64,000 bases of DNA from a virus. The stretch covers positions 1 through 64,000 of IMG/VR virus record IMGVR_UViG_3300027586_000003. The stretch is one strand, 5' to 3'. Position 1 is the first letter of the stretch, and every line of letters starts with the position of its first letter. A program made the position numbers and the translations under genes. The notes below the pieces were generated by a model, which made no database searches, was not told the origin of the DNA, and saw only the letters and a program-made list of their open reading frames with translations. Below are positions 5,015-52,600 of the stretch, in pieces.

Positions 5015-5821
5015 TTAGCGTTTCCAGTAGTCAGCCGCACAGATTGCGCCCGCTACGACAGGGTTTCTGCCGCAGTCGTCGGACTGCGTAGCCGGACGTG
5101 CTGCTTGGCGAGCCGGACGGTTGGCATAGTAGCCTTGCTCACGACGGCGACGGCGGGTAGCCCACGCACGGACAGCACCAAGGGAGCGGCGGCTTTGCAC
5201 GGGGGCAACTGGAGCAACCGGAGCCGTGGCTTGTGCGCCTTCCCATCGGGCGATTACCATTCGATGCCAATTTACGAACTGCGACAGCGTAGCTCCGGGC
5301 ACGTTGACCGCCCGCACGTTTGCCAAGTCGCCAGTGAGGATTGCCGCCTGAACGGCAGCGAGGAAGGCGGACGTGATCGGGAACGCAGCGGACACCGGAT
5401 AGTCGGCAGAAATTGTCCGACCGTTTTGCGTAGCCGGGAACACGGGAGGCGGAATCATTGCCGCCAGCCGTTCACGTTGCTCCTCTGACGCCGCACCGAC
5501 AACGGAGGGAGCGGAAGCGGGAGCGTTCTGCGCAACTCGAAACACCGTGTCACAACGGGCCACCACCCGGTAGCCTCTGGACTGCTTGGCCGCTTGCTTG
5601 CTGCTTACGTAGGCAAGTGCGGACGGCAGCGACGCACCGCTCAATTTTACGCTGCTTTGGGCGTATGGTGAAATCCCGTAGCTGCCGTAGGCACCGTCTC
5701 TGCGGCCCCACCGGGCCGTCACGATATGACTGAAGGCATTGCCAATTTCAGCCTGCGTAATTTCCAGCACGTAAATCTTGTCGTGCCCGTCCGCATTGTT
5801 GTGAAGAGTTATTGAGCGCAT
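5015..5821 (-). CDS. WGR-domain protein
   Basis: HDKIYVLEI...ARWGR...K.SRGY WGR signature followed by a low-complexity tail. Confidence 0.7.
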   Translation of the reverse strand: MRSITLHNNADGHDKIYVLEITQAEIGNAFSHIVTARWGRRDGAYGSYGISPYAQSSVKLSGASLPSALAYVSSKQAAKQSRGYRVVARCDTVFRVAQNAPASAPSVVGAASEEQRERLAAMIPPPVFPATQNGRTISADYPVSAAFPITSAFLAAVQAAILTGDLANVRAVNVPGATLSQFVNWHRMVIARWEGAQATAPVAPVAPVQSRRSLGAVRAWATRRRRREQGYYANRPARQAARPATQSDDCGRNPVVAGAICAADYWKR

Positions 5822-5846
5822 AGTGTTTGGTGTTAATTGCAACGCC

Positions 5847-5880
5847 AGCCTACTTCACAGGCAGGCTGGCGTCAAGTGTT
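5847..5880 (-). promoter_or_regulatory. promoter enclosed in a hairpin
   Basis: ACAC-TTGACG-17-TAGGCT; ACGCCAGCCT...AGGCTGGCGT. Confidence 0.7.
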
Positions 5881-5888
5881 TTCAAAAC

Positions 5889-6449
5889 TTAATTGTTAAT
5901 CAAGTTTTCGTCACAGTTACCGAGCGAGGCCAGTTGGGCCTCCACCGACTGCTGGATTGCGACCGGGGGCGGAACCACGCCGCTGCGAACCTGCTCAATC
6001 ACGTCGGCGAGACGCAGAGCGTTCGGATTTCCTTCCGCCAATTCCGGTCGCACGATGAACGGGCCGATGCAATACATCCGGCTCGCACTGAGCTTGAAGA
6101 ACCGGACGTAGAGGCTGGCTGACCACTTGTAGGCGGCGTGCCCGTTGCCGCCGGTCTGTGCGTAGCGGAAGCGGTTCAGGTAGTTCACCACCGACAGGTT
6201 TCCGAGAAGGTGAATCGTTCCGAAATCGTCGTTGACGTGAGCACCACCGGACAGCGCATCCCCGGCTTCGTCCATGTTCAGCTTGATGCTCTTGCCGTAG
6301 ATTGCGCAGAGCGCATCGTGCAGCGATTGAAACTTGGCCTTGCGCTCTTCGAGCGTTCCCTGCCACGGCTTCGAGTGGCGGAAGGTGCGGATTGCCGACA
6401 CCACGGCGGGCTTGAACTTGCGGTCGAGGTTTAGGAGTTGTGCCATCAT
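5889..6449 (-). CDS. hypothetical phage protein
   Basis: 186 aa, own promoter and A/C-rich leader. Confidence 0.75.
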   Translation of the reverse strand: MMAQLLNLDRKFKPAVVSAIRTFRHSKPWQGTLEERKAKFQSLHDALCAIYGKSIKLNMDEAGDALSGGAHVNDDFGTIHLLGNLSVVNYLNRFRYAQTGGNGHAAYKWSASLYVRFFKLSASRMYCIGPFIVRPELAEGNPNALRLADVIEQVRSGVVPPPVAIQQSVEAQLASLGNCDENLINN

Positions 6450-6491
6450 AGTTTTGTCTTTTTGTTGTGTGTTTGTGCTTTCAACATCGCC

Positions 6492-6525
6492 ATCCTCGCA
6501 CGGGTGAAATCATTCGTCAAGTGTA
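6492..6525 (-). promoter_or_regulatory. promoter (ACACTTGAC family)
   Basis: TACAC-TTGACG-17-GAGGAT, shares GTGCGAG with the promoters at 4372 and 11799. Confidence 0.6.
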
Positions 6526-6858
6526 TTCGTCTCCAGTCAACCCTTTTTCTTCTTCGGCTCTCTCTGCCCGTGATACCAGCGGTTCAACGTCGCCGCCAAA
6601 CTGACCGCCTCCGCCTCCGTCAAGTTGTCCTCCGGGTGATTCGGCACTCCCGCCAGTTCCAGACATCGCTTTCCCACATGACTCTTGAGCATCCACGTCT
6701 TCACCGACCAGCCGCTCTCGGTTTTCAGGGGGGCGAACATAAGGGATTTTCAACCATCGTTGACCGCCACCTGAGTCTGCCCACAACTGTTCGAGGACGC
6801 CGCCGTTCCATCTCAAGAACGACGACGGACGCAGTGTGCGCGGCTCAGTTGTAGTCAT
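6517..6858 (-). CDS. hypothetical protein starting inside an attC-like arm
   Basis: ATG in the repeat CTCTATGAC; LRW..VLEQLW..W..IP pattern in the N-terminal half. Confidence 0.5.
   Translation of the reverse strand: MTTTEPRTLRPSSFLRWNGGVLEQLWADSGGGQRWLKIPYVRPPENRERLVGEDVDAQESCGKAMSGTGGSAESPGGQLDGGGGGQFGGDVEPLVSRAERAEEEKGLTGDEYT
6537..6740 (-). CDS. hypothetical protein
   Basis: 67-aa protein-like ORF nested in another frame of 6517-6858. Confidence 0.5.
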   Translation of the reverse strand: MFAPLKTESGWSVKTWMLKSHVGKRCLELAGVPNHPEDNLTEAEAVSLAATLNRWYHGQREPKKKKG

Positions 6859-6891
6859 AGAGGGCGGCTGTAGCTCAGTTCTGCGTTGCCG
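6853..6891 (+). repeat. attC-like half site (L'-R'), direct repeat of 7634-7668
   Basis: 33/35 identity with 7634-7668; GCTCAG TTCTGC GTTGCCG. Confidence 0.7.
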
Positions 6892-6907
6892 GGGTCGGTT
6901 GTTATTT

Positions 6908-7639
6908 TCATCGTGGCGCGGCGACGCGCTTGGTTTGCCGATGCTTTTTCCTGCGCGTTTGATTCTCAAACAGGGCGAATGATTCGTTGCCGCTTATTGC
7001 CAGCCTGTCGTCGGTATCTATTTCGAGACTCATGCTTTCAGCCTCCTGCTTTGAATAGACCACCTTTGCAAACTTTAGCCCGTGCTGCTTTATCAGCGCA
7101 TCATGCTTGCCACCGTAGCTGGCTTGCAGACATAAGTTGGCGGGTATCTGGTCGCGGCGAACCATCCAGAACGGAATTGACTTCGTGAACGCCCAAAACT
7201 TTACAGACGGCTTTTGCCTACATACTTCCAGCCATCCGTCGAAGTAGTCCTGCGAGAAGAAATCGCCGCCAGCGTGGATTCGGACGTGGGTTGCTTTTTT
7301 CGGCCAGCACGCCAGCAGTGTCTCTGCCACAGCCTCCGGCGTTTTGCCGCGCACAGACTCAAAGTTGTGCCACGCCTTTTCGCGCACTGCTGGGTAGCGT
7401 TCGGTTGTTGCTGAATAGCATTTGAAAGTTTGGTGTTCTCCATTTTTTATCTTGCCGGTTTTGCGGTCTGCATACGCCAGACATTCCAGCGCACCGGGAC
7501 AAGTAAAGCCGGATGGAAGATTCCAAGTAAAAACAGGAAACCCGAAATACTTGTTGTTGTCAGTAAATCCAAACTTTACACCGAGCAAATCACTGGAGCG
7601 AACAGCCGCCCCGCACGTCGTTGGTGATTCGGCAGTCAT
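6908..7639 (-). CDS. Gp88-like phage protein (Cys-rich, radical-SAM-related fold)
   Basis: WNLPSGFTCPGA..C..CY, VRIHAGGDFFSQDY, FWAFTKS motifs. Confidence 0.75.
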   Translation of the reverse strand: MTAESPTTCGAAVRSSDLLGVKFGFTDNNKYFGFPVFTWNLPSGFTCPGALECLAYADRKTGKIKNGEHQTFKCYSATTERYPAVREKAWHNFESVRGKTPEAVAETLLACWPKKATHVRIHAGGDFFSQDYFDGWLEVCRQKPSVKFWAFTKSIPFWMVRRDQIPANLCLQASYGGKHDALIKQHGLKFAKVVYSKQEAESMSLEIDTDDRLAISGNESFALFENQTRRKKHRQTKRVAAPR

Positions 7640-7672
7640 AGAGGGCGGCGGTTGCTCAGTTCTGCGTTAGGC
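7580..7672 (+). mobile_element. integron attC-like site
   Basis: R'' ACCGAGC, 5 nt, L'' ACTGGAGC (extra G), GCCGCCC/GGGCGGC stem, L' GCTCAG, R' GTTAGGC. Confidence 0.7.
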
Positions 7673-7962
7673 AACAACAAAAACGCTGGCGTTCGCTCGC
7701 CCACCCAAGCACCGGCCTGATTGAACTCATGGAACTCCTCGGCTTCATCCTCCGTCATGCCGTCATTCATCAGCCGTGCAATTACTTTGGCGCGGTCGTA
7801 GATGATTACGGGTTCTTGACCGAAACGGATGCAGATTCCAGCGATGCAGTCGTCGTATCCGTCCATCGTCAGCATTTCCCCGTATATTTCCGCCATGTCG
7901 GCTAACCATGCGCTGCACCTAACCCGGCCATCGCACTTCGGTTTCAATTTGGGATTCTTCAT
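7636..7962 (-). CDS. conserved acidic phage protein (DGYDDCIAG / YDRAKV / EAEEFHEFN type)
   Basis: recognisable motif set; both ends encoded by attC-like arms; upstream in-frame start at 8001 also possible. Confidence 0.75.
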   Translation of the reverse strand: MKNPKLKPKCDGRVRCSAWLADMAEIYGEMLTMDGYDDCIAGICIRFGQEPVIIYDRAKVIARLMNDGMTEDEAEEFHEFNQAGAWVGERTPAFLLLPNAELSNRRPL

Positions 7963-8028
7963 TGGCCGGGTAGGTGAGGTGGATTTGGGAGTCATGTTCA
8001 AGCGTCTTGCGTGAGCTTTTCGTTAGAC
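7900..8028 (+). mobile_element. integron attC-like site with a 37-nt insertion
   Basis: R'' GGCTAAC, L'' GCTGCACC, stem ACCCGGCCA/TGGCCGGGT, duplicated GTGAG (7974, 8011), R' GTTAGAC. Confidence 0.7.
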
Positions 8029-8077
8029 ATGGTTGCTGCTAAACGTCTAAAACGGCGCATTGAGTCGGAAATCTGGG

Positions 8078-8329
8078 CTATTGCGCCTTGAAAGCAGCAC
8101 TAAGGCTATCTTTAGCCTCCAGCATCCGTTCGAGCGCAACGGCGAGATTCTTACCAAACCACCGGGCGCGATGGTGGTCGGTTTGTTCCACCACGCAAAA
8201 GCCCTGATGGTCTATTTGCAGGTAGGTGTTCCACTTGTCTCCAATTTTTACGGTGCGAACGTAGCGGCGACGAATGAGGCTAACCATGCGCTGCTGCAAA
8301 CGACGGGATTCAGTCTGAGTTTTTTTCAT
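8078..8329 (-). CDS. hypothetical cassette-like protein
   Basis: N-terminal RRLQQRMVS is encoded by an attC-like arm. Confidence 0.7.
   Translation of the reverse strand: MKKTQTESRRLQQRMVSLIRRRYVRTVKIGDKWNTYLQIDHQGFCVVEQTDHHRARWFGKNLAVALERMLEAKDSLSAAFKAQ
8278..8305 (+). repeat. attC-like half site (R''-L'')
   Basis: GGCTAACCATGCGCTGC identical to 7900-7916. Confidence 0.7.
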
Positions 8330-8333
8330 GTTG

Positions 8334-8624
8334 TCACATCTGGTAACTTAGGCTCGCCTTGTTGCGCTTCGTCCAGCCACGGAGCTTCCGCTGCCGCTCG
8401 CGTTCTAGCTTCGTGTGACGCAGGCACAGCGCACCAATGGCGGGCTGGCTGCACTTCCAGCACATCCCGGCAGCGCGTTGCCGCAATTGCCACGCCCGCT
8501 GGCGGCTTACTTTGCGCGGCTCCGCCACCGCTCCCTTGGCGAGCTTCTTGGGCTTCCAAGCGTGCTTCTTGTTTGCTGGGTTGGGCCGAGTGACGCGCTT
8601 ACGCGCTTTCTGCTTCTTCTTCAT
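8334..8624 (-). CDS. basic zinc-finger-like protein
   Basis: K/R-rich, CxxC...CxxH. Confidence 0.6.
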   Translation of the reverse strand: MKKKQKARKRVTRPNPANKKHAWKPKKLAKGAVAEPRKVSRQRAWQLRQRAAGMCWKCSQPAIGALCLRHTKLERERQRKLRGWTKRNKASLSYQM

Positions 8625-8626
8625 AA

Positions 8627-9136
8627 TTATGATTCCGTCGCTGCGATTTCGTTGCTGAACCTGCCGCACAAATCCATGTCCACATCCCACCACCCGTCAT
8701 GCTTCAGGTAGTAGCAAATCTCGAATGCGTCTGGTGGCGTGACACTCGTGGACTCGACTGCCGCTTTAATGCTTCTTTGCGTATCAGCGCGGTCATCTTC
8801 GTAGGCGTTGTTTCCTTTTAGCCACGCTATCGCAATGTCGGTCAGCCGCTCCTCCAGAGGAATCTTGCGCCGCGCAACGAACGCTTCCTGCCGCGCTTTC
8901 AGAGTTCCGTGGGCGCACTTCCCCAAGTTATCAACCACGTTGGCTCGCCACTCCTCGCGGGTGATGCGCTCGACTGCGAGGCCGGTGCGAATCCACTCCG
9001 CTACGTCGTCGGCGTTATGTTGGCGCGACCCCTCGTTGTCCACTGCTGACGCACAGACGCAGCCACATGGCATCTTGGCGATGTAGAAGTAGCCGGTCGG
9101 ACTGCGCAGCTTTTTCGGGTCAGTTACGATTCTCAC
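8627..9136 (-). CDS. hypothetical protein
   Basis: 169-aa ORF, GTGA overlap, PCGCVC motif. Confidence 0.7.
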   Translation of the reverse strand: MRIVTDPKKLRSPTGYFYIAKMPCGCVCASAVDNEGSRQHNADDVAEWIRTGLAVERITREEWRANVVDNLGKCAHGTLKARQEAFVARRKIPLEERLTDIAIAWLKGNNAYEDDRADTQRSIKAAVESTSVTPPDAFEICYYLKHDGWWDVDMDLCGRFSNEIAATES

Positions 9137-9549
9137 AGGTGAAAAAATCTATGCTGACCAACTGTCGCAACCTCTGTTCTGCCCTGCGCCCAACGTGGCG
9201 TCTTGAAGTGAACCGACTCAAAGTGGTTTGCCCCGCCCGTGTAGCGAGTCGTCACCGGGTTGCTCGCTATCCACAATGCCACAGGCCAAAGCCGATGCTG
9301 GCTTGACTTGGCAACCAAGGCTGACGGCGACACCCCGTTCAGGACGGAGAACTGCTTACGCTGTTGGACTACCTGAGCGTGCGACAAGCTGCGCTGGAAC
9401 GAGCGTGTGTTCACGACTTCCATTACGCAGCGCAAGCCCACCTCTCCGTCGCAGCCCGCCTCTGCAACAAGGACGGCGGCAACAATCTCGCGGTCGGTAA
9501 CGGCAAATGCGTTCACGGACAACAGCAATAGCAGTGCAATGGTTTTCAT
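9133..9549 (-). CDS. cell wall hydrolase, SleB/Hydrolase_2 family, with signal peptide
   Basis: AEA..D...G...V..VV.TR, QFS, TGGANHF, PRWA, GQHRFF. Confidence 0.88.
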   Translation of the reverse strand: MKTIALLLLLSVNAFAVTDREIVAAVLVAEAGCDGEVGLRCVMEVVNTRSFQRSLSHAQVVQQRKQFSVLNGVSPSALVAKSSQHRLWPVALWIASNPVTTRYTGGANHFESVHFKTPRWAQGRTEVATVGQHRFFHL

Positions 9550-10217
9550 AGGGAGACAGGCATCGCAGCTTTTACACGGGCAGCGTGCCGCTTCGTGAAG
9601 GCGTTGGAAATGGATTGCTCTTGGCTCGTTATCGCCTTTGCGCCGCCCACCATTACCATGTCACCGAACAGCTTTGGGGCCGGGGTCACGCTGTCATTGA
9701 ACAGCTTCTCCGCACCCCACACGGCGAGCTTCAAAGCCTCAACCACCACAGCTTCAGCCAGCGATGTCACGCCGGATTCAGATGTAGCTGACACGCTCAA
9801 CAACACAACCTCGCTGTCAACGTCTTGCACTACGGCTGAATGACGAATCTCAACCGGGTAGTCATTCTGAAACCATACCCGATGCAGGTCGGCCTCAATG
9901 AAGTCTAAACCCTGACGGTCAAGCTCAGGCGTCGGCAGTTGGTCGTTGATGAAGTTCGCCATCAGCGATGCGTCGCTCAGGCCCAGCTTCAGCTTCTCCA
10001 TTGCGTAGCTAGCGTGGACGTAGCTTGTGAACTTCCAGAAGCCCTGCCCCATGACGCCCACGAACAACGTCGGCCCGACCCGCTGGATGCTGACCTCGTA
10101 TTGCCGACCGTTGCCGAGTGCCACCCGGTAGAGGCCGTCCACCAGCCGTGGAAAGCACCCTGCCGAGTTAATTCGGATTGGCTCTGCTGCTGTCCCAATT
10201 GTTTTTAGTGTTTTCAT
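9546..10217 (-). CDS. hypothetical protein
   Basis: 223 aa after a promoter and an ACAACGACAACGAC leader. Confidence 0.7.
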   Translation of the reverse strand: MKTLKTIGTAAEPIRINSAGCFPRLVDGLYRVALGNGRQYEVSIQRVGPTLFVGVMGQGFWKFTSYVHASYAMEKLKLGLSDASLMANFINDQLPTPELDRQGLDFIEADLHRVWFQNDYPVEIRHSAVVQDVDSEVVLLSVSATSESGVTSLAEAVVVEALKLAVWGAEKLFNDSVTPAPKLFGDMVMVGGAKAITSQEQSISNAFTKRHAARVKAAMPVSL

Positions 10218-10240
10218 GTCGTTGTCGTTGTTGCTTGCGC

Positions 10241-10273
10241 ACCTTTGCTAGTTTTTTTAACCGCGTCAAGTGT
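10241..10273 (-). promoter_or_regulatory. promoter (ACACTTGAC family)
   Basis: ACAC-TTGACG-17-AAAGGT (weak -10). Confidence 0.5.
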
Positions 10274-10299
10274 TTGTTTTGTTATTTTAACGGTTTTTG

Positions 10300-10390
10300 A
10301 AAGTGTCCCGGCGAAGGTTCTCAGGCTACCTTGCCGGGCGAAGCGGGCACCTAACGGGGACACTGGTTCCCCGGCCTGTTCCGCTAAAGC
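10300..10390 (-). ncRNA. candidate structured RNA / terminator switch
   Basis: several overlapping complementary blocks in about 90 nt of intergenic DNA. Confidence 0.35.
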
Positions 10391-10392
10391 GT

Positions 10393-11136
10393 TCAGTCGT
10401 TATGCACGTCGCTCCATCCGTCTCGACGGGCATTGTCTAACTCTTCCTGCCACCAAGGAGTGTAAGCCTTGTGTTCCTTGGGCACGTCCGACTTCTTGTG
10501 ACTGCCGTTCGTCTTGAAGCCAAGCTGCGTCGCCGTGTTACCGAGTCCGTGACCGTGCTTTGGCTTGTCGTGAAGCGGGTTGCAGGACAGACCGTGCGCC
10601 CAGTTCGTGTTGGAGAACATCGCACCGTCAAGCTCCACGAAGCCGCCAAACAGCTTCACTTCGCCATTGGAGTGCATGACTGCAAACTTGCCCGCCCCAC
10701 GCTTTACAAACTCCTGTAGGCAAGCCTCGCCACGGTGAGCTACAATGCGTGCGATGACTTGCGAATCCGATGCGTCTGGCGGGTAGCCGACACCCGCCAT
10801 GCTTGCGTAGAATTCCCAGCCGGAGCAGTGACCGTTGTGATACAGAACGGATTTTGCCGCTCCGTTTAGTTCGTCGTTCTTTGTGGTCTTGATTACGAAC
10901 GGGTGACACCGGGAGGGTTGCACGCCGCCCGCAGTCGCAATGCGGAAGTGGACAACGTGTGGCAACGGCTTGTCTTTGAGAAGTTCGTGAATCTGGTTTG
11001 CGCTCACGTCTTTCTGCCAGCGGACTAGGCCGCTCTCAATCCACGAGCAGCCGCCCCCGTGCGGGTTGGAACTCTGGCACGCCCGGAGGATGTTCAACGG
11101 AATGGACGACTTGATTGCAATTGCGATAACGCACAT
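10393..11136 (-). CDS. class II (Ntn) glutamine amidotransferase
   Basis: Met-Cys start, NPHGGG, HFRIAT.G, CHPF, HNG, SDS, FSN. Confidence 0.9.
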   Translation of the reverse strand: MCVIAIAIKSSIPLNILRACQSSNPHGGGCSWIESGLVRWQKDVSANQIHELLKDKPLPHVVHFRIATAGGVQPSRCHPFVIKTTKNDELNGAAKSVLYHNGHCSGWEFYASMAGVGYPPDASDSQVIARIVAHRGEACLQEFVKRGAGKFAVMHSNGEVKLFGGFVELDGAMFSNTNWAHGLSCNPLHDKPKHGHGLGNTATQLGFKTNGSHKKSDVPKEHKAYTPWWQEELDNARRDGWSDVHND

Positions 11137-12890: not shown

Positions 12891-14390
12891 TTAGCCTGTC
12901 AACGCCCGCTCCCGTCGCTGCGCCATCGCTCGGTGAAGTCGGTCGTGGACGTTGACCGACGCCGGGAGGTTGAACACAGTCCGCAGCATCATCCAGCAGC
13001 CCGATACCGCATCAACGCCATCGTCCAATTTACCCGACGGGAACTGTTCCGCTTGCATGATGAAGTCCATGTTCCAAGACCCCCGCACCAACGCCACTTT
13101 GCCTCGGTCAACCAAAGCGATCCACGGCAGCGCACGGGTCAGCTTGTCCCGGTCTGCCCCATACTCACGGCAGGTTATGTGCGGCGGCAGCACTTCGATG
13201 AGGTTTGCGAACGCCGTTTTGAATCCGGCAACCGCCTCGATACCAACCGGAATTCCCTCAAGCTCGGCAGTTTGTTTGATACGCCGCCGTGACTCCGGCC
13301 ATTCCCATTGCCCGTCAATCCAGTCACGCAGGTAAAGCGTGCCTTCCGTGTCTAATGCGGCGGCGAAACTGGAGGTGTGGTCAGAGGTCTTCTTCTCGCT
13401 TGTCGCCAAATCCCAGAAGCGCACCCAGCGCAGTCCGTCTGGCGCGGCGTCCACGATTTGCAGGTTGGCGACCGGGATGTAGTTGCCGCCACGCACCACA
13501 GGTGAGCCGTCATACAATGCCGACCAAACATAGCTCCCGACGCTGGCACGGATACTCCGTAACCGCTCCACCGGATACCGTTCAGGAAACAGCGCGTCAC
13601 CGGGCGCACGACCCAGCGGGTCATCGTCATGCGCCATCGCTGGCAAGTTGATGATTTCCCACTTCTCGTCTGTCGCAACGTCGGCTTCGTTGCATCGCGC
13701 CGGGTCAAGCAACCGCCCAACCAAATCGTCGGTGTGCCATCTCGTTTGCAGCACGATTACCGATGCGCCCGGATGCAACCGTGTCAGCGCGACGGCTTGG
13801 AACCAGTTCCACACATTGTCGCGGATGGTTGCGCTATGGGCCTCCTGAAAGTCCTTCGTGCTGTCGTCAACCAGCAGGCAGTTGCAACCCCTGCCGGTGA
13901 GTCCGCCGCCAACACCGACCGCCTTATACATTCCGCCGTGAGAAGTCTTCCATTCGTTAGCTGCCGCCTCGCCATCTGCAATGCGTGTGTTGAAAATGGC
14001 AGCGTATTCTTCGCTTGCTAACCGTGCGCGGGCTTGCTTGGAATGGCTCATTGACAAGTCCTGAGCGTAGGACGCCAGCACGATTTCAGTCTCAGGTTTC
14101 CTGCCTAGAAGCCACGTCGGAAACTCGACGGCTATCAATCTGCTTTTACCCACGCGGGGCGGGCAAGTCACGATGAGCCGCTTGATTTTTCCCTCTGCAA
14201 CCTGCTGCAACTTGTTTGCAAGGAAGATGTGGAATTTTGACGCGATGTAGTCTGGGTTGCACGCCTGCGTGTAGAAAAGAAGGTCGTTGCGAGCTTCCTC
14301 CAGCATCGCGCTGACTTCTGTATCGTTGTCGGTTGTCGTTGTCTCGTCTGACATCCGCGCCACCGTATCAGCGAGGCTATTTATGTTCAA
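12891..14390 (-). CDS. terL: terminase large subunit
   Basis: Walker A PPRVGKS, LTGRG, Walker B LLVDD, QTRWH.DDL.G, nuclease WDLA and DDGVDA. Confidence 0.95.
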   Translation of the reverse strand: MNINSLADTVARMSDETTTTDNDTEVSAMLEEARNDLLFYTQACNPDYIASKFHIFLANKLQQVAEGKIKRLIVTCPPRVGKSRLIAVEFPTWLLGRKPETEIVLASYAQDLSMSHSKQARARLASEEYAAIFNTRIADGEAAANEWKTSHGGMYKAVGVGGGLTGRGCNCLLVDDSTKDFQEAHSATIRDNVWNWFQAVALTRLHPGASVIVLQTRWHTDDLVGRLLDPARCNEADVATDEKWEIINLPAMAHDDDPLGRAPGDALFPERYPVERLRSIRASVGSYVWSALYDGSPVVRGGNYIPVANLQIVDAAPDGLRWVRFWDLATSEKKTSDHTSSFAAALDTEGTLYLRDWIDGQWEWPESRRRIKQTAELEGIPVGIEAVAGFKTAFANLIEVLPPHITCREYGADRDKLTRALPWIALVDRGKVALVRGSWNMDFIMQAEQFPSGKLDDGVDAVSGCWMMLRTVFNLPASVNVHDRLHRAMAQRRERALTG

Positions 14391-35424: not shown

Positions 35425-38400
35425 TTAGCCAGATGTGTGAATTTGTCCAGTGTAATTTATTGCCTGATTAAAATTGTGTTCAACATTAACCCCAAGGGCG
35501 GATGTGCAAGCCGCAATTTTCATGCCGTCCGCCGACATGGCGATGGAACGCCAATTCCGGTTACTGTCCCGCGCCTTCCATGTCGCGCCGTAGTCGGTAG
35601 AAGTGTAAATTAGGCCGTTAGAAGACTCTTGTATTCCGAAGCTGTTTGTTATGTTCCCGACCACCGCCGCCAACCGCTTTCCATCCGCAGACATGGTGAT
35701 TGACTTCCAATTCCGGCGGGCGTCGGTCATACGCGCAACCCACGTAACACCGTAGTTGTTCGAGGTGTAAATGTAGCCGTCCAAAACGCCGCTACCGACC
35801 ACCGTCGTTATTGCCAAATATTTTCCGTCCGACGACATGACGATTGAACTTGCACCGGAAACCCCATTAATTAACCCACTTGGAGTCCAAGTCTCACCAG
35901 CGTTGTTAGAAGTCCAAACGGCAGAATGCATCAAAAGCATCGAATTAGTAAAAGCCGCAAGATATTGCCCGCTCGAAGACGAGGCGACGGCTTTCCAATT
36001 CATTAGGAGATATGCAGTAGAAGCATTACCCCCGCTATATATACGCGGATAAAAATTAGCACCGTAGTCTTTCGAGATGTAAATTAAGCCGGGATGATGC
36101 ACTGCCACCACAAGCCTCCCGTCCGCCGACGAGGCGATGCCAGTCCAATTACGGTTTCGTAATTCAATTATGCCTGTCCTTGCTTCATCCACTCGCTGAA
36201 TCCATGCTTGGTTCCAAGTCGCGCCAGAGTCAGACGAATACCAAATATTGCCGCCGAAGCCCGCCGGTTCGCCGACGCCGCCGTAGTGCGCCGCCACCAG
36301 CCTAGTGCCTCCCCACGACGTTGCGATGCAAGACCAATTCCGAGGCGCGTCGGCCATGCGCTGCACTAAACTAGAGCCTTTCAAAGTCCAAATATATCCA
36401 TTCCAAGAAGTCGCCGCAAATTGTGACCCGTCCGCAGAAGAGGTGATTGAACTCCAAATTTGAGACTGGAAGAAAGGCCCAGCCCATTCAACGCAAACCC
36501 CGACGCTAAGAACGGGAATTGCTACAAACGAAATACTCGACACCGAATTGAGAAGAAATTGCGAATTGAGTTTGCTTGCAGTTGCTCTAAGCTCAATGCG
36601 CGAATTCGCCGAAAGTTCCCAGCGGGTTGGGGCCGGGCCACCAGAGGTGTAAATCCGATCTCCGTAAGCCACCGCCGCCAGACTTTTCCAATTGGGTGTC
36701 GAAGCGATGCTAACCCAAAACCGAAGGGCGTCGGTCATACGCGCAACCCACGTCGCGCCGTAGTTTGTTGATGTGTAAATGTAGCCGTAATCAACCCCCG
36801 CCGCAAGCCTCGCCCCGTCCGGCGACATGGCAATGCTAGACCATCGCCGGACAGTCTCACGAGGAAGCCACGTCACGCCATAGTTGGTTGATGTGTAAAT
36901 CCGGTCGTTGTAAGCTACCGCAGCCAGATTTTTCCCGCCTTCCGACATGACAATGCTACGCCAATCTTTGTTGGCTGTAGGCATACTATCTATCCACGTC
37001 TCACCGTAGTTGTTTGATATGTAAATCGTTCCGTTGTGACTCCCCGCCGCCAAAACTTGTCCGTCAGACGAAGATGCGACGCATTGCAAATACCCTTGGG
37101 GTGTAGCACTGGCTGTATGCTCGACCCATGTCGCACCGTAGTTAGTCGAAGTCCAAATATGTCCATTTCCAACCGCTACCAGCCTGTCTCCTTTATCAGA
37201 CGATAAAATGGACTTCCAATTCCGGGCGATGCCGTCCACACGTCGAGTCCATGTAAAGCCAAAGTCAGTCGAGGTGTGAATGTAGCCATACATATTCGCC
37301 ATTACCAGATATTGCCCGGTTGACGAAGATGCGATGATTAAAGAGGCTCCTTCAGAATATTGAAAACTTTGAACACGCGCCGTCCACGCAATTCCCGCTT
37401 CGTTTGATGTGTAAACTTGACCGGAGATTGACGCAGTTGCCGCCAGACTTCTTCCGTCCTCTGACAAGGCTATACCTGTCCACAACCGTTCCTCGGTTGT
37501 CTGGTTTTTATAAACATTACGCTCAATCCAATCAAGTCCAGTTCCGGCACTTAATTTGGCGAATGATGAGAGATTAAAATCTACTCCAAGCGCAACAATA
37601 GAAGCTGGCGAAATATTGCTGCCAGCGGAAAGATTAAAATTTGCTCTAAGCTCAATGCGCGAATTCGTCGAAATATACGGACGGGTTGGGGCCGGGCCAC
37701 CAGAGGTGTAAATCTGTCCGTTCTCAACCACCGCTGCTAGATTCGTCCCGTCCGCCGACATGGCAATGCTAGACCATCGCCGGACAGTCTCACGCGCCAC
37801 CCATGTCACCCCGTAGTCGTTAGAAATGTAAATCTGGCTGTTCACACTCACCGCAGCCAGCCTTCTGCCGTCTGCTGACGAGTAGATAGAACGCCAATCC
37901 CGGTTGCTCTCCCGCGCCGTCCAATACTGGCCCGAGTCGGTCGATGTGTAAATCTGGCCGAGTTGAACCACCACCGCCAGCTTTCTTCCGTCTGCCGACG
38001 AGGCGACGGAAATCCAATTATAGCGGAGAGTCGTCCTCTGAAACCACGTCACACCCGAATCGGTCGAAGTCCAAATCGCGCCGTCGTAAACCACCGCCAC
38101 CAGCTTCGTCCCGTCCGCCGACGAGGCGATGCTCCTCCAGTTCCGGGTGTAAGCCCGCGCCGTCCAATACTCGCCCGAGTCGGTCGAGGTGTAAATATAG
38201 CTGTCGCTACCCACCGCAGCTAACATCTTCCCATCCTCCGACGATGTGATGGATTTCCAATTTCCGCCTATCTGACGCTCCACCCATGTCGCGCCGTAGT
38301 TGATCGAGGTGTAAATAAATCCAGCGTAATTTACTGCCGCTAAATTTTTGCCGTCTGCTGAAGAAGCGATAGAATTCCAATTTCGGATGCCGCTCGCCCG

Positions 38401-41400
38401 CGCTGCCCACGTCTCCCCGTAGTCGCTCGATGTGTAAATAAACGTATTTGGGCCAGCCGTCGCTAGGTATTTTCCGGTTTCATCAGATGCGACATAACTT
38501 GTAGAAGCGTTAATCCGAGGCGTCCATACTACACCACCTCCATGCGAAAGGTCTGCTTGTAATACACACTCAATGCTGCTCGACGTTGACACAAGCCTAG
38601 TCCGAGGAGTTAGGATTGCAGTTTCTTGAAAAACAATGCTCGCCGCTGTAGCAAGCTTTGCGCGGGCGGTTAGATTGGCGGTTGCTCTAAGCTCAACGAG
38701 CGATGAAGAGAGGGCTGTATTTAGCCCAGATCGAAAGGTTAGGTTTGAGGTTGCTCTAAGCGAAAACATCGAAGCTGTCGCAAAAATATCTCGGGTGGTG
38801 AGTCTGGCATGACTATACTGATAAAATTGATCTATTCTTGATTCTGCCTGAAGCTGATTTTTCCACGAGTTTGCTGTGTAAATCTGGCCGTCGTAAACCA
38901 CAGCAACCACAGCTAAACCATCCGCCGAAGAGGCGACGGCTTCCCAGTTTCGATTTCCGCTTGGCTTCGCCGCCCACGTCTCAGCGTAGTCGTTAGAAAT
39001 GTAAATCTCGCCATTTCTAGCTAACGCTACCAACCTTTGTCCATCACTAGACGACGCAATGGCAGACCAATCTCCCGACATCATACTTCTCCAGTCAATT
39101 CCGTAGTTTATCGAGATGAAAATTCCGCCTGATCCATATTCGTTAGAAGCCACCGCCGCCAAAACTTGTCCGGTTGAGGAAGACGCAATAGAACGAAATT
39201 TTGCACCATATGTTCGCCTCACCCATGTCAATCCGTAGTCCGTCGAAGTAAGAATCCCTCCCTGCCCAATACTAGAACTGGTTGCAGCTAAATTTTTACC
39301 GTCTGACGACGAGGCGATGGAAGTGTAATCCAAATAGGACGTGTAAATCTGAGAGGAGAACTGCCTTTGGATGCTTAAATCATAACTCAGAGCGATGTTG
39401 TAAATTTTTTCTGTCAATTGCCGAACCCACGTAACACCGTAGTTGTTTGAAGTCCAAATGCTTCCAGATGTAAGCCATACCGGGTGATAATATCCAATCG
39501 TAACTGCTGCCAGATATTGTCCGCTCGACGACGAAACAACGGTCTTAATATACTGTTGCCTAACGATCTCTGTCCCAGAATTGTAACTGTATTCACTAGC
39601 TTGAAGGAAACCTAATTGAACCCAGTTCAATCCCCCGTTAATGGAAGTGTAAATCGCGCCCATAGTCCCTGCCACCAACCTCTGCCCGTCCGACGAAGAG
39701 GCGACAGAAGTCCAATTCTCACCATTCCCATAACTTAGCTGCCACGTATCACCGTAGTTTTTCGATGTGTAAACCCCACCGCTTGCGCCTCCATTAACCG
39801 TTGCCGCCAGCTTTCTTCCGTCTGCCGACGAAGCAACGGAACTCCAATTCCGGTTCCTGTCTTCCGCACGAATCGCCCATTCCATGCCAACTCCGCTGAT
39901 AAAACTGCCAGTTGCTCCAAATGAAATGCTCGACTGCGTAAAAAGACTCGCTCTTCTGTATACCGGATAGCCGGATGTGTAAATAGCTCCCGCGATATGG
40001 CTTGTAGCAGCTAGAACATTTCCCTCTGTCGAATAGGCGACAGAAGTCCAACGGCTATTGCTTTCTCGAACCGTCCATGTTAGCCCGTAGTCGTTTGAAG
40101 TAAGAATGCTTTTCTGTCCAACATTGCTAAAAGGACTCCCAGAAACAGCAGCCATTTTCTTTCCATCGCCCGACGATGTGACGCCTGAAAAAGCGTGATT
40201 AACATCGTAGAATCTTGTTTCCCAGCTTAAACCATAATCGTTTGATACAAAAATGTGACCGTCACGAGTTGCTGCCACCAAACTTGCTCCGTCAAAAGAT
40301 GATGCTATTGAGCTATAATGCAGATAAGCAAATAGGGAAATCTTCCACGTTTTGCCGTAGTCATTCGAGGTGTAGATATATTCGGCTACTGCCGCCAAGA
40401 ACTGCCCGCCACCAGACGAGGCTATGGATGCCCAATAGTTGCTTTCGCCCACCTCTTTCCAATAAAGTCCTGAATTTTCCGAGATGTAAATTTTTCCGGG
40501 AGATTGAGCCGCAGCCATGTGAAGCCCATTGTGAGAAACTGCCACTTGACTCCAGTTTCCCGTTAGCAATATCTCATATCTGTTATCTACAATTACTTTA
40601 CCTATTGGAGACCACTCTTGATTTCCTCCTCTGTAAAGTTGGTTTCCCGCTGCTGCCAAAGACAGGTTTCCTTCATACGTAATAGCGATGTCAGTCCAAT
40701 TCAGAGCAGCGAGTTGGAATTTTGAGCTTACTTGCATTGTCCAAGTCACGCCGTAGTCGTTTGATTGATAAATACTGTCACCGTATGCCACAGCGGTCAT
40801 TGTTCTTCCATCCCCCGAACAAGCGATAGAAGTCCAATTCTTGTTTCCGCTCTGCTGCCCAGTCCATTCAACGCCAACCCCGGTGCCAAGAACTGCAATT
40901 TCACCAAACGAAAAGCTCGACACCGAATTGAGAAACAATTGAGATGCGAGAGGGGCAATTGCTCTAATCGAAACGCCCGACACCGACTCAAAATCTGAAA
41001 CCATACGGCCCCCATCGCCTGTTGTGTAAATCTTTCCAGCGTTGACTGTCCCAGACAACTTGACGCCATCCGACGACATGGCAATGCTAGTCCAATTCCG
41101 GTCGCTTTCTTCCGCCGCCCATGTCACTCCAAAGTCGCCAGAGGCGTAAATTCGACCGCCGTAAACCGTCGCTAACAGCTTTCCTCCGCTTGGCGATGAG
41201 GCGATGGAACGCCAATTGCGGTTGTTCTCACGCGGAAACCATGTCGCACCGTAGTTGCTTGATGTGTAAATTTGGCCGCCCTCAACCACTGCCGCTAGAT
41301 ATTGTCCGGTTGACGATGAGGCGATGGAACGCCAATTGCGGTTGTTCTCACGCTGAAGCCATGTCGCACCGTAGGTGCTTGATGTGTAAATTTGGCCGTT

Positions 41401-44400
41401 CCGGTCTGTCGCCGCTAGATATTGTCCGGTTGACGATGAGGCGATGGAAGACCAGTAAAAAGCTGCGTTCCCAGTCTGTGGGTGCCAGAAGACGCTTTGT
41501 TTCCATGTTACACCCGAATCGGTAGAGGTGAAAACCCCGCCATACCAAACCACTGCTGCCAGTTTTTCTCCGTCATCAGATGAAGCTATGCCAGACCAGT
41601 TCTCATTTGAATTTGAACCGTGAAAAGGCAAAACCCGCTCTGTCCACGTCGCGCCGTAGTTGATAGAGGTTATGATTTTACCGGGAAAAATAACAAGCAA
41701 TCCATACTTCAATCCGCTATCCACAGCCGCCAACTTTTGTCCACTCACAGACGATGCTACTAACCAATATCCATTGGAGCCGGTCATTCGAGGTGTCCAG
41801 CCTCTTCCAAAATCGTTTGAAGTGTAAATATAGCCTTCATAAACCCCTGCCACTTTATACTGTCCGGTTGACGAAGATGCGATGGAAAGCCAACTGCGGC
41901 TACTGTCACGCTCCGACCATAATAAAATAAGTTCGACAGTTGATCCGAGCAAAATTATAGACGCTGACTTAAAATTAGAGGCGGCGTAGAGATTAAAATT
42001 TACTCCAAGCGCAATAATAGAAGCTGACGAAATATTGCTGCCAGAGGAAAGATTGAAGTTTGCTCTAAGCTCAATGCGCGAATTCGTCTCTAGTTGACTA
42101 GGAGTGATTGGGTTTCCAGAAGTGAACACGTTGCCGTCACTTAACGCCACAAGCAGACCGTTTGCCTCCGCCGAAGAGGCTATATTTCTCCAAGCTTTGA
42201 TGTCTCCAAACCCTCTCCAAGTCAAACCTTCGTCGTTAGAAATGTAAATCTGCCCGCCGTCAATCGTTGCCGCCAGTCTTTTCCAATCTTTCGACGAGGC
42301 GATGTTGCTCCAATTCCGGTTGGCGTCGGTCATTCGCGCTGTCCACGTCGCGCCGTAATCTGCGGACGTGTAAATGTAGGCGTCGCCCCAAGCTGTGTGA
42401 ACCACCGCCGCAAGTTTCGACCCATCCCATGACGAGGTGATAGACTTCCATAACCGGTTGCTATCCCGCGCCGTCCACGTCACGCCGTAGTCGGTAGAAG
42501 TGTAAATCTGACCGCCCCGTGCCGTCGCTGCAATATTTTGTCCATTCCACGACGAGGTGATGGAATTCCACTGTCGGGCAATTTCACGCGCCGTCCACGT
42601 CACGCCAGAGTCGTTCGACGTGTAAATCCTTTCTAAGTAACCCGCCGCTACTAGATTAGTCCCGTCCCACGAAGATGCGAATGGCTCCCAATTCCGGTTG
42701 CTGTCCCGCGCCGTCCACGTCGCGCCCGCGTTGGTCGAGGTGTAAATCTGGCCGCCCCAAGCCCCTGCCACCAGCTTCTTCCCGTCCGCCGACGAGGCGA
42801 TGCCCCGCCAGTATTGGTTTGGTAAATATTGATTCCAGCCCTCGCCTGAGTTGGCAGAAGCCCAAATCGTCCCGCCCCAAGTCCCTGCCGCCAAATTTTT
42901 ACCAGTATGTGAAGATGCAATGCAGGTTAATCCTGTTCCACCATAAGAACGAGCCGACCACACCTTTCCGGCTCCATCCAAAAGACTTACTTGTGTTGGC
43001 AAAAACCAAATAAATGACAACCCAGTTAATTTCGCCCCCGCAACCAAAACGCCACCGTTTCCGATGGAAGCTCTTGACGCTACCCCCATTCCAACCCCCG
43101 CATTAAGGCTCCCGATTTCGGAAACAAGAATTTCGGATGAAAACGACAGCCCTTTCGGCGTTATAGTTTCTCCACTGTTCCCAATGGTGATTCCAGACAC
43201 CGCCGAGAAAAGTTGCGGCACCCCAATTACACCGCTGTTTCCGAAGGTGATTCCAGACACCGACGAGAAAAGTTTCGGCACTCCAATTACGCCACTGTTT
43301 CCGATGATAATTCCAGATGCCGATGAAATGATTTGCGGCAATCTAATTACACCAATGTTTCCGATGATAATTCCAGATGCCGAAGAAAGCTGCGATGGAA
43401 CGAGCGGGTCGCTTCCAGTTGTGTAAATCTTTTCTCCGTAAACCGTTGCCGCCAACTTGACGCCATCCGACGACATGGCAATGCTAGTCCAACTCCTGTC
43501 GCTTTCATCCGCTACCCATGTCTCGCCAGCGTTAGTCGAAGTCCAAATCTGTCCGTTCAGAACCACCGCCGCTAGATATTGTCCGGTTGACGATGAGGCG
43601 ATGGAACGCCAATTGCGGTTGTTCTCACGCGGAAACCATGTCGCACCGTAGTTGCTTGATGTGTAAATTTGGCTGCCCTCAACCACTGCCGCTAGATATT
43701 GTCCGGTTGACGATGAGGCGATGGAACGCCAATTGCGGTTAGGCTCACGCGGAAACCACGTATCGCCGTAGTTGGTCGAAGTCCAAATCTGTCCGTTCTC
43801 AACCACCGCCGCTAGATATTGTCCGGTTGACGATGATGCAACAGCAATCCAATTACGGCTACTCTCTTTCGCTGCCCACGATTGGCCGAAATTTATGGAT
43901 GTATAAATCTGCCCTCCGCGAGCCGTCGCTACTAGATATTGAAGGTTTGAGGACGAGGCGACGGAAGACCAAGCCCTGCTCACGTCGGTCTGCACGTTTA
44001 TCCAGCTAATTCCGTAGTCATGTGATATGTAAATAAAACCGTTATCAACCGTTGCTACCAGAGATTGTCCAGTTGAAGATGAAGCAATGCCGCTCCAATT
44101 CCGGTAGCTGCTTGCCTGAGCCGTCCAGCCTGAGCCGTAGTTGGTCGAGGTGTAAATCCGAGCGTTTTTATCCACCGCAGCAAGTCGTGCCCCGTCCGCC
44201 GAAGAAGCGATACTCCACCAACTGTGGGGCCAATCAGGTCTATCCAGAGGTGTTAAGCGGGCTTTCCATGACTTAAAAAGTCCGCTATTGTTATTGGTGG
44301 CGACTGCCAGCACGTTTCTTCCAGATGCCCCTTCAAATACTTGCCCAACATTCAGCACACCACCGTTTCCAATGGCGGTTTCAGACGCTACCTCCATTCC

Positions 44401-49667: not shown

Positions 49668-52600
49668 TTAGTTCATCATTGAGTTGTAGATTGCTTCCAA
49701 ATTGGTCAGGCCGGTAATCCGAGCGACGGGAACGGTTCCGGCGGTCAAAAGTCCCGCACTACTGACAATAAAGCCACCTAAATTTGAGTCGCCGACAACG
49801 TGCAGAGTAGATGTGGGGATTGTGATGCCGATGCCGACTTTGCCGGTGTTAAATATCGCAGCCGGGTTTGTTCCATCCCCGACAACGTAAAGGCGAGCAG
49901 GGATTGTTACTGTCGCTGGAGCATCTGCGCCGATTATTTGGACATTTCCTCTACCGAGATTTAAGCTGGCGGCATCTAAACCAGCAGCAACAACAGCGTT
50001 ATTTGCACTATTTAAGAATTGCCAATAGGGAGAATTAGACACGTTGGCTAATTGCACATTGTGTCCACCAGACTTTTCAAACCTCGCGGGGAATCCGCTT
50101 GAAAAAACGTGGAGCGTATTCGCAGGACTCGTCGTCCCGATGCCGACTTTGCCCGTCCCGGCAGGGGCAATTATCACGTCAATGTTCGCCGCCCCCGTTC
50201 CCGCAGTCTCCGCTGCCAGAGTGAATGAGTTAGCTGTTTGATTTATGGAGAATCGCTGGTAGTTGCTCGCGTTAGTGTAGGCGTAGTAACTGCGAATAAC
50301 ACCCGTGTTTTCAATCGTGAAAACCTTTCTGCCGCTGCCTCCTGACGTGGTGAAGTCGAAGTTTTGGTATGCAACTAGATTAAGTGCTGCTGGCCCCGTC
50401 ATGCTGCATCCTGTGCCAGCCCAGTAAAATGTTTTTGCTGCCCCCATCGCAACGTCAATCAGGAACGTCGCGCTCGTATTGTCCGTCGTAAGCACATTGG
50501 TTCCGGTCTGCGGGGAGTAGAATATGAAGCCTGTGTATGGGGCCGATAGCACCATGTAGTTGCTGTATTCCTCAATCGTTCCGCCACCAGAAAACTTCAA
50601 GCCGTAGTTGTCACCTGTCGCAACAGTTAGTGCCTTGCTTGCGGCCATCGCCACCGCATTGGCGAAGGTGAAACTAGGCGCACTCCCCGCCGCCGTGAAC
50701 GTAGTAAGCCCCACACTGGAAACCGTCGTGTCCATGTAAGTCGTTGCGCTGCCGTTCGCATCGTTGTAGGTCAGGCGCAGAGCCGATGACGGGCCGAGGT
50801 TGATTTCACAAACCTTGTCGGGAGCGGTGGTGCCGATGCCGACGTTGCCGGAGGAAGTGATTCGCATCTTTTCCGTAACCGTTGCCAGCACGCTCTGTCC
50901 TGCGGTCGTGCTTTGTGTTCCAAAGACTAAAGCTCCGAGACTGTTCATGTATGTGGAGTTCTCCTTAACCCCTCCAATGCTGGCGAATGTGGTGTCCACA
51001 GCACCTTGACCAGCAGTGCTACCTCCAAAAACAATTGTGCCGCCGTTGCCTGCCGCATAAACTCCGTTCGTGGGGTTTTCGCCGACGAACAGATTCCCGA
51101 GCGTTGAACTCTTGGTGCTTCGCGTGTTAATGACACCTTGGACGAGAGTGTCTCCTGTGATGTCCACTGCCCCAACCACCATCAGTCCATAATTCGAGCT
51201 TGCACCTATGGAGGAGAAGTAGCCTGCGACCAAATTGTTGTTTGCTCCTCCTGTCAGGACGCTCCTTATCCCATAAACTGTCCCAGTGTTGTCGGGTGGG
51301 GAGATGGCAATGTGCAGGCTTCCCGCCGAGTTAATCTTCGCCAGCACAGTTCCGCTGCTGTTCTGCACTTCCAGTGCGTTCGCCGTTGCCGAGGCTGCGA
51401 GTTTGATTATTGAACCAATGGTTCCTGCTGCTCCAGCGTTGACCTGCAACTGTGCGCCGGGAGACGCCGTGCCGATGCCGACTTTGCGCGTGCTTCCATC
51501 AAAAAATGCTATCGCGTTTTGTTTACCATCAAAAACAGTCAAGCTTCTGAACCGAGTAGTGCCGCCATTATATCCGGTATAGTTTATGCCACCCGAATTA
51601 CCAGAAGTTGTATCAGCATCTAGCCCATAATCAAAATTTAATTGATTGCGGTTACCTATATATATACCGTATCCTGACTGGTCGGTTACTTTTAATGGAA
51701 TTGGAACAGTGGGGAAACTGCTGGAAATATCCAACTTCGCCCCCGGACTCGTCGTCCCGATGCCGACGTTGCCCGTCGCCGCAGATATTACAAGCCGCCT
51801 TAAAGCTGCCGCCTCATCGTGGATGTAGAATTGGGCGTCGTCAGTTCCGAGCCGGTAATGCTTAGTGCCGCCATTAAAATTCAGTTTCAGATAAGGCCCA
51901 CCGCCGCCTTGCCCGATAGTAAAGATGCCAGACGAAAGGCCATTGGAACCAGAAAATGAGCCATCAGCACCAACCTGAAAGTATGCGTTTCCAACAGAGT
52001 CCTCCACCGCGAATACCGGAGCAACGACTTGGGCGACTGCTGACCTTCGCACCAATAAACCTTTACCATTAAACGAGCCATCTTGAGTTATAAAAACAGA
52101 GGCTTCACTGGCAGCTACTGGTGTGTTAACACTAAGTTTATTTCCCGGACTCGTCGTGCCGATGCCGACGTTTCCTGCATGATACATCTTTGCATTAGCA
52201 TCAACGGAGTAAATGCTGAATGGCAGATTGGTCTGTGTGCCTGCTGTTTGAGAGCCTATGTAGAGGCCATAGGTGTCCGTTATGGTTCCACCGCTACTTA
52301 GGGCACTAATGTGGATTGCACGCCTGTCGGCGGTTGTTCCTCCAACGCTGGTGGAGCGATTTGCGGCGATGTGGAGGCCGGTTTGATTAGTGACTCCGCT
52401 AGATGCTTGGGCCGAAGCATTGACTATTGCTCCTACCAAAGTGGTAACGGCTCCCGCGCCCAAGGCTTGTGCTGCCAAGGAATAGGTTCCGTAACAATTT
52501 TGGAGGGTGCCAGTTCCATAGTGGTAGTTATACATCAACGAGGCATAAACCGCGTTGAGATTTTCACTATTGGTCGCAGGCACAACCGTTTGAATCCACT

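Follow-up and report, generated by a model that had tools for sequence, protein, structure and literature searches.

Integrons are regarded as bacterial gene-capture devices, and their cassettes are read from a promoter beside the integrase. The recombination sites of the cassettes, attC, are imperfect palindromes of about 57-141 bp located between the boxes RYYYAAC and GTTRRRY. The folded bottom strand of an attC site shows extrahelical bases on the 3' arm, a short L box, an unpaired spacer and an R box, with T-N6-G as the typical spacing of the extrahelical bases; IntI1 excises T-N6-C substrates efficiently and T-N5-C substrates weakly (15%) (PMC3053210). Here we describe a group of attC-like elements placed between small genes in a stretch of 64,000 nucleotides of virus DNA (positions 1 to 64,000 of IMG/VR record IMGVR_UViG_3300027586_000003, hereafter the window). 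Four elements related to attC, unequal in preservation, were found at 6851-8301. We conclude, with a probability of about 70%, that this region is a small and partly eroded array of reversed cassettes, of the type called CALIN (cluster of attC sites lacking an integron integrase), in a phage probably infecting Verrucomicrobiota.

The likeness to sedentary chromosomal integrons, such as those with the Vibrio cholerae repeats, includes the RYYYAAC and GTTRRRY boxes, the unpaired spacer of 5 nucleotides (nt), the L boxes, the two extrahelical bases on one arm and the variable terminal loop, as well as the arrangement of mostly small genes in same-strand arrays with near-uniform sites. However, in the phage it is the attC bottom strand that carries the genes, translation passes through the arms, and the crossover triplet AAC is an in-frame codon. 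In addition, the phage loop holds a start codon and, when it is longer, also a purine-rich ribosome-binding stretch of the AAAGGA type; intI and attI are absent from the phage, and in the main subtype the two extrahelical bases are spaced as T-N4/5-C.

Integrase-less attC clusters in phages have been known since 2023. The article by Qi et al. reports CALINs in virulent and temperate phages, with DNA methyltransferases among the cargo, and recombination by IntI1 of five of the six phage sites tested; the arrays that it illustrates and tests are short, with 3 attC sites in the TJE1 cluster, and two phage arrays are described with the orientation typical of bacterial arrays (PMC9892861). Our family resembles these CALINs in its attC clusters without integrase and in its methyltransferase cargo, but it reaches 11-17 sites per phage and its genes are reversed and translationally coupled; term searches of that article gave no mention of start codons inside sites. 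A search of full-text literature found no paper on reversed, translated attC arrays or on Verrucomicrobiota phage arrays, and the reversed, translated layout read from the present sequences would therefore be an addition to the clusters already described.

Junctions between small accessory genes of T4-like phages carry PeSL (promoter-early stem-loop) motifs, promoter-terminator composites thought to act via homologous recombination (PMC2839356, PMC4122927). Like our elements, PeSL are conserved short motifs between such genes that mark points of insertion, loss or replacement among close relatives. In contrast, our elements lack both a sigma-70-like promoter and a terminator, they contain start and stop codons, and their homology is to integron attC; they are not PeSL. 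A scan of 6000-10500 with a simple sigma-70 consensus found no promoter-like site on either strand, and no terminator-like site was found on the gene strand of the same region.

Structure of the sites and of their family

The window is phage DNA, as indicated by a large terminase (12891-14390) and by tail-fibre proteins. The parent record is 105 kb long and is estimated to be 77% complete. According to the list of open reading frames (ORFs), the minus strand carries all plausible genes within 4-12 kb. The motifs quoted in an initial annotation of this DNA are all present: on the plus strand the boxes GGCTAAC (7900 and 8278), ACCGAGC (7580), GTTAGGC (7667), GTTAGAC (8022) and GTTGCCG (6885), and on the minus strand ATG codons at 6858, 7639 and 7962 and an ATGA overlap at 7636-7639. 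A direct repeat of 35 nt (6853-6887 and 7634-7668, 94% identical) brackets a gene of the GP88 family, and its 33-nt pattern was matched in none of 100 shuffles. There is also a direct repeat of 24 nt (7900-7923 and 8278-8301), exact over 17 nt; two matches of this 17-mer were reached in 4 of 100 shuffles.

Relatives of these elements were found in other viral contigs. A scan with the core of the 35-nt repeat detected four contigs in which about 89 nt (7586-7674 of the window) are 90-95% identical between unrelated flanks, and a scan with the other arm added five contigs, with the same arms and with loops that differ in length and sequence. On the gene strand, the 5' half of the element has the layout [RYYY]AAC, 5 unpaired nt and ACTG-AGCG-ACAGCCGCCC, and the 3' half has GGGGCGGCTGT-T-CGCT-C-CAGT, 5 unpaired nt and GTTAG. 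The loops of the family measure 28 to about 90 nt. Alignment of 21 copies revealed an 18-bp stem that is 93% paired, with compensatory double changes at 10 pairs, invariant AAC and GTT, and almost no one-sided (G-U) changes; no shuffled or slid control comes near this degree of pairing and covariation. In contig L032 the conserved arm is read in other frames and is kept nevertheless, so the constraint acts on the nucleic acid and not on the peptide. The 5-nt spacers are not complementary, and on the 3' arm of the gene-sense strand a T and a C are unpaired in all aligned copies, followed by 3-4 bp, 5 unpaired nt and GTTAG. These are the features of attC, namely a palindrome bounded by the two boxes, in which a central spacer stays unpaired and two extrahelical bases share one side. 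The T and the C are separated as T-N4/5-C in the main (A) subtype and as T-N6-C in site B of the window.

The reference attC models used by IntegronFinder are absent from Rfam, and a covariance model was made instead from the family itself, using 21 members. Site A was one of these, and its score is therefore partly by construction. Over the 64 kb this model has significant matches only at site A (7578-7673, 80.9 bits, E 1e-18) and site B (7898-7991, 22.2 bits, E 0.0016). Rfam gave no match in 6400-8500 at E up to 10.

Site A (7578-7674, minus strand), read here as a bottom strand, is a near-intact attC. It comprises an R' box GCCTAAC (GTTAGGC on the plus strand, 7667-7673), a spacer, a bulged stem, an L'' arm and an R'' box at 7580-7586, which is degenerate, as the initial annotation had stated: it is ACCGAGC on the plus strand and reads GCTCGGT rather than GTTAGNC on the gene strand. 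The loop of 28 nt contains ATG 7639 and TGA 7636-7638. On the plus strand the site extends over 93 nt, from 7580 to GTTAGGC, and fits the length of attC with the R'' box as the exception. Site B (7898-8028, minus strand) is an attC of a second subtype. Its outer part consists of the R' box GTCTAAC (8022-8028), the spacer GAAAA and the L' box GCTCAC, and its inner part contains the loop ATG at 7962, the spacer GCATG and the R'' box GTTAGCC (GGCTAAC on the plus strand, 7900-7906). The distance from GGCTAAC at 7900 to GTTAGAC at 8022-8028 is 129 nt, which also fits the length of attC, and the L''/R'' end matches site ends of other arrays. The 5' arm of site B is interrupted by an insertion of 37 nt (7974-8010) with flanking CTCAC repeats, which explains its low score; after removal of these 37 nt the site folds as a canonical bulged hairpin with extrahelical T and C in the spacing T-N6-C.

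The remaining two elements are incomplete. Site C (8278-8301, minus strand), one copy of the 24-nt repeat, is a remnant of a B-type site that retains the L'' arm, the spacer GCATG and the R'' box GTTAGCC only; the family model gave no match there, and inspection by eye found no upstream partner arm. Site D (6851-6892, minus strand) is a half attC and a copy of 35-38 nt of site A. It keeps the outer R' box CGGCAAC (GTTGCCG on the plus strand, 6885-6891), the spacer of 5 nt, the L' arm, the 5' arm of the stem and the loop ATG at 6858. Its other arm is decayed, and the model reaches only 9.7 bits when the site is extended to 6779-6892. The same half-site is found in a relative of the window, contig L134. 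The proposal of four attC-like elements therefore holds for A, which is near-intact, and for B, which is interrupted, while C and D are mere half-sites. Of these sites only A is near functional. The region nevertheless corresponds to a CALIN, since sites A and B are 224 nt apart, two half-sites are present besides them and there is no integrase.

Two other origins of the repeats were considered and rejected. The matches of the 17-mer in viral contigs had been taken as chance because blastn did not extend them, but most of these contigs (L025, L026, L028, L029 and L030) hold sites of the family; there is no match in L031. A tRNA fragment was suggested by GCTCAGTT in the 35-nt repeat, which resembles a D-arm, but the likeness stops after 8 nt and is on the antisense strand. 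Among 50,697 records of isolated phages, blastn found nothing relevant to either 5800-9600 or the L040 array, and a synteny search with the window proteins against viral contigs found no close relative.

Reversed arrays in phages and canonical arrays in hosts

Intact arrays of the family were found in other phages. The model identified 17 sites in 6.2 kb of a 46.6-kb viral record, dense and on the same strand, and 11 sites in 3.3 kb of a complete 41.6-kb genome with terminal repeats. In these two arrays, 25 of the 28 sites have an ORF of at least 60 amino acids (aa) on the bottom strand whose start is in the loop and which continues across the 3' arm, and in the other viral contigs a loop ATG with a through-reading ORF is present at 29 of 42 sites. 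This agrees with the initial annotation, which placed the starts of the genes within the hairpins. The AAC of the next site is a codon of the long upstream frame at 23 of 27 junctions (producing tails such as ..PNDQAERQPP), and most of these frames end at the TGA of the loop ATGA. The suggestion that the sites supply translational coupling is thus corroborated, with the crossover triplet read in frame and the stop overlapping the next start. In a canonical cassette the ORF is located on the attC top strand, upstream of its attC, whereas the window and the related phage arrays have all their ORFs on the bottom strand, with starts in the loop.

The cargo of the arrays consists mostly of small proteins with no assigned function, together with several DNA methyltransferases (N6_N4, MT-A70 and C5-like) and one DUF4326 protein. 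The first and last cassettes of the complete phage (L039:2021-2764 and L039:5229-5942) have nearly the same site-encoded leader (MSAP.TSD.NQDAARAHGSSLQRLV), which runs into different DNA methyltransferases, one C5-like and the other N6_N4.

The family is also present in bacteria. In the bacterial genomes scanned, the window-type 5' pattern had no exact match. The 20-mer of the 3' arm was found in 86 stretches of contigs from bacterial metagenome-assembled genomes (MAGs), nearly all of Verrucomicrobiota and often on several contigs per genome, and the family model has 222 matches in 80 of these 86 stretches, many of them as arrays. Three of the five Verrucomicrobiota genomes tested encode integron integrases, scoring 341-402 bits with NCBIfam TIGR02249, whose cut-off is 265 bits. 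At four intI loci in three genomes (G010 C6, G010 C4, G007 C4 and G009 C23) there is a model match on the same strand, 0.65-2 kb off the 5' end of intI. The integrases at these loci score 341-390 bits, and one of the genes is split. Their proximity to the sites confirms that the elements are attC homologues, as had been proposed.

ORFs were listed for the two G010 loci (L127 and L128). The cassette ORFs are located on the opposite strand and end at the sites or a few bases into them; among their products are a ParE toxin, an MFS-like membrane protein and a hydrolase-like protein. The family therefore includes arrays beside intI with ORFs ending at the site, an arrangement that this window does not have. 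It follows from the canonical layout at the host loci that the modelled strand, which is the gene strand in the phages, is the attC bottom strand. At 111 of 128 host sites an ORF of 60 aa or more on the top strand comes to its end, while a longer loop-started ORF on the bottom strand is found at 14 of 128. Against the 25 of 28 phage sites with bottom-strand loop starts, these counts show that the initial annotation was correct in describing the genes as inverted relative to normal integron cassettes. Host and phage sites have the arms and the outer loop in common; the host loops examined contain neither the purine-rich stretch nor the in-frame ATG.

Other features of the host genomes were observed. 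Many Verrucomicrobiota MAGs have a recurrent cassette that encodes secreted proteins of about 220 aa, with an end that by eye resembles a PEP-CTERM sorting signal (VPEPSTWALL..WFRRKRN; L060:2265-2921, L064:2643-3326, L081:5812-6498, L045:6272-6940, L097:179-835 and L082:298-981). Each is followed by a 141-nt attC of the same family, and the ORF stops 7-8 nt inside the site. In genome G006, to which locus L068 belongs, many contigs hold near-identical tyrosine-recombinase-like genes of about 293 aa, dozens in all and often paired a few kb apart; each matches the integron-integrase model in part, at about 104 bits. This suggests a multicopy mobile element.

Neither PF00589 nor TIGR02249 has a match in the 105-kb record, at its estimated 77% completeness, and the region is therefore not a complete integron. 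The absence of an integrase, initially noted for the window, thus extends to the whole record, and the host lineage possesses IntI. A recombinase encoded by the phages was considered and rejected, since the tyrosine recombinases that two related records contain are of a generic kind, distinct from IntI and located at least 10 kb from the arrays.

Gene replacement and competing explanations

One close relative of the window was examined, the 3.6-kb contig L134, obtained from one metagenome scan. It is 99.9% identical to window positions 9808-7586 and 98.5% identical to 6887-6222. The window has, as cargo between sites A and D, a GP88-family gene of 243 aa (6908-7639, minus strand; Pfam PF17338, E 4.5e-34; phrog_1392), and L134 has in its place a 252-aa N6_N4 DNA methyltransferase. 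The left junction is the G|TT of the inner box of site A (GATTTG-TTAGGGC in L134 and GATTTG-CTCGGTG in the window), and the AAC of site D forms the right junction. Site A of L134 is intact, with a GTTAGGG box and 89.2 bits, and the methyltransferase takes the AAC of site D in frame. In the second comparison, L035 and L039 are 97% identical over 2 kb and diverge directly past the GGCTAAC of the first site. As aligned, the breakpoints in both phage comparisons lie at the boxes, and gene content differs exactly at the site edges, the outcome that the initial annotation had proposed to look for in related phages. Together, our comparisons demonstrate homology to host attC, the reversed gene strand, phase-locked junctions and gene replacement at site edges, and they support the interpretation of the region given in the initial annotation.

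In intact arrays a gene starts at the ATG of the variable loop and reads the L''/R'' arm as a stretch of about 10 residues in its N-terminal leader. At the boundary of the cassette the crossover triplet AAC serves as an in-frame Asn codon, and the gene stops at the TGA overlapping the next loop ATG. Because the phase at the junctions is fixed, any order of cassettes would remain in frame and translationally coupled on a single phage transcript. The obvious candidate enzyme for the exchange is host IntI, which would act on folded bottom strands, and transcription may aid it through exposure of the coding strand, the recombinogenic bottom strand. The hairpin may enforce coupling at the RNA level, and the cargo, with several DNA methyltransferases in the related arrays, may serve counter-defence. 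Somewhat below even odds, we tentatively propose that Verrucomicrobiota phages run a reverse-polarity integron on host IntI, with excision and insertion at AA|C during infection and rapid shuffling of counter-defence genes such as DNA methyltransferases. Any new gene order would immediately be expressed as a chain of coupled genes, since AAC is an in-frame codon and the loop holds the stop, the start and, when longer, the ribosome-binding signals.

Several observations weigh against reading the region as a cassette array. The T-N4/5-C spacing of the main subtype departs from the usual T-N6-G. The folding check proposed in the initial annotation succeeded for site B once the 37 nt were removed; it did not for site A, whose z-score of -0.9 is no better than that of shuffled sequences, owing to two mismatched stem positions. 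An integron integrase was found neither in the 105-kb record nor in four other viral records bearing the element, one of which is complete. The window itself has two half-sites, an interrupted site B and a site A without GTT in R'' and with two uncompensated stem mismatches, and this damage makes present-day recombination by IntI at this locus doubtful. Furthermore, the exchange of the GP88 gene and the methyltransferase leaves site A nearly unchanged (1 mismatch in 81 nt), while a canonical swap should import a different copy of attC; homologous recombination within the conserved sites accounts for this no less well. The unchanged site A and the resemblance of half-sites C and D to intra-site recombinants make homologous recombination a serious rival or a parallel route.

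If homologous recombination were the only route, the attC-derived hairpins would now be just RNA coupling devices and portable homology: the stem would hide or frame the region of the start, a gene would be translated only once the upstream ribosome had opened the stem, and genes would be swapped between co-infecting phages within the conserved 40-90 nt, with no integrase. This would account for the start and stop codons in the loop of nearly all phage copies, for the fixed junction phase and for the viral records without integrase. The junctions between the window and L134 would be mere ends of shared element sequence, with a site A that is near-identical in both, half-sites C and D look like products of recombination within sites, and PeSL-mediated shuffling offers a precedent (PMC2839356, PMC4122927). 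However, the phage copies retain features whose only known role is for IntI, namely invariant AAC and GTT, an unpaired spacer of 5 nt and a pair of extrahelical bases on one arm. The near absence of one-sided G-U changes is unusual for a purely RNA helix, and L035 and L039 break at the AA|C box and not deeper within the site. We consider this explanation rather unlikely.

Origins unrelated to attC have far less in their favour. Rickettsia palindromic elements (RPE) are both palindromic and translated, as our elements are. Miniature inverted-repeat transposable elements (MITE), repetitive extragenic palindromes (REP) or RPE-like elements spreading into gene junctions, with a convergent likeness to attC, would explain the copies that are 90-95% identical between unrelated flanking genes. 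This explanation is largely refuted by the adjacency to IntI, because the same model finds canonical arrays adjoining genuine integron integrases, in which the cassette ORFs terminate at the sites; moreover, the loops vary freely while the arms covary, and no associated transposase was seen. We regard it as very improbable. Chance matches to the loose consensus RYYYAAC and GTTRRRY in a GC-rich phage genome might be argued for sites C and D, which alone are unconvincing, as the 4 in 100 shuffles with two 17-mer matches illustrate. For sites A and B chance is refuted by the 80.9 bits of site A, by the 33-nt pattern that never occurs in shuffles and by the conservation of the family across dozens of contigs, and as an explanation of the region it has almost no probability left. 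A partly eroded reversed cassette array of the CALIN type is thus the explanation that we prefer.

Genes at the sites and biological meaning

The genes of the window show the traces of this arrangement to different degrees. Site A encodes the first 19 residues of the GP88-family protein. At its other end this gene does not enter site D, and the gap is bridged by an ORF of 18 codons (6855-6911, minus strand; predicted translation MKITTDPGNAELSYSRPL), presumably translated, whose ATG overlaps the TGA of the GP88 gene, which reads the AAC of site D in frame and whose own TGA overlaps ATG 6858. It has the look of a relay, re-establishing coupling where a gene ends outside the usual phase. Upstream of the GP88 gene, a gene of 108 aa (7636-7962, minus strand; phrog_13182, E 3e-23) starts at the loop ATG of site B. 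It has a core of about 87 aa with homologues in other phages, and its last 10 residues come from site A. The core homologues (86 aa) start near MAEIY, and ATG 7962 is in frame with the core. Codons 10-17 of an 83-aa gene from the ORF list with no assigned function (8078-8329, minus strand), which has no Pfam or PHROG match, derive from the site C remnant. The idea that the GP88 gene or the 87-aa gene is a habitual cassette was rejected, as 18 other loci with homologues have no adjacent sites.

A 303-kb viral contig has a 400-aa ORF (L004:4667-5869) directly downstream of its homologue of the 87-aa gene. By eye this ORF resembles TnpB/IS605 OrfB and carries a zinc motif, CxxC..CxxC, at the C-terminus. 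Two giant ORFs, of 3351 and 2499 aa, are located in the phage's structural half (35425-45480 and 49668-57167 of the window).

The origin of cassettes and the coexistence of recombination sites with coding sequence are general questions about integrons. The attC family described here is common to bacteria and their phages, and in the phage version it is turned round and fused to translation signals. It illustrates that the variable loop of attC can carry a start codon, and in longer loops a ribosome-binding stretch too, and that a reading frame can run across the crossover point. Sequences of intact sites (L134 and L040) and of host IntI genes (L127, encoding 427 aa, and L128) are at hand. If the sites are active, the phages could draw on the cassette pool of their hosts and also feed it, and anti-restriction genes could be reshuffled without any enzyme of the phage's own.

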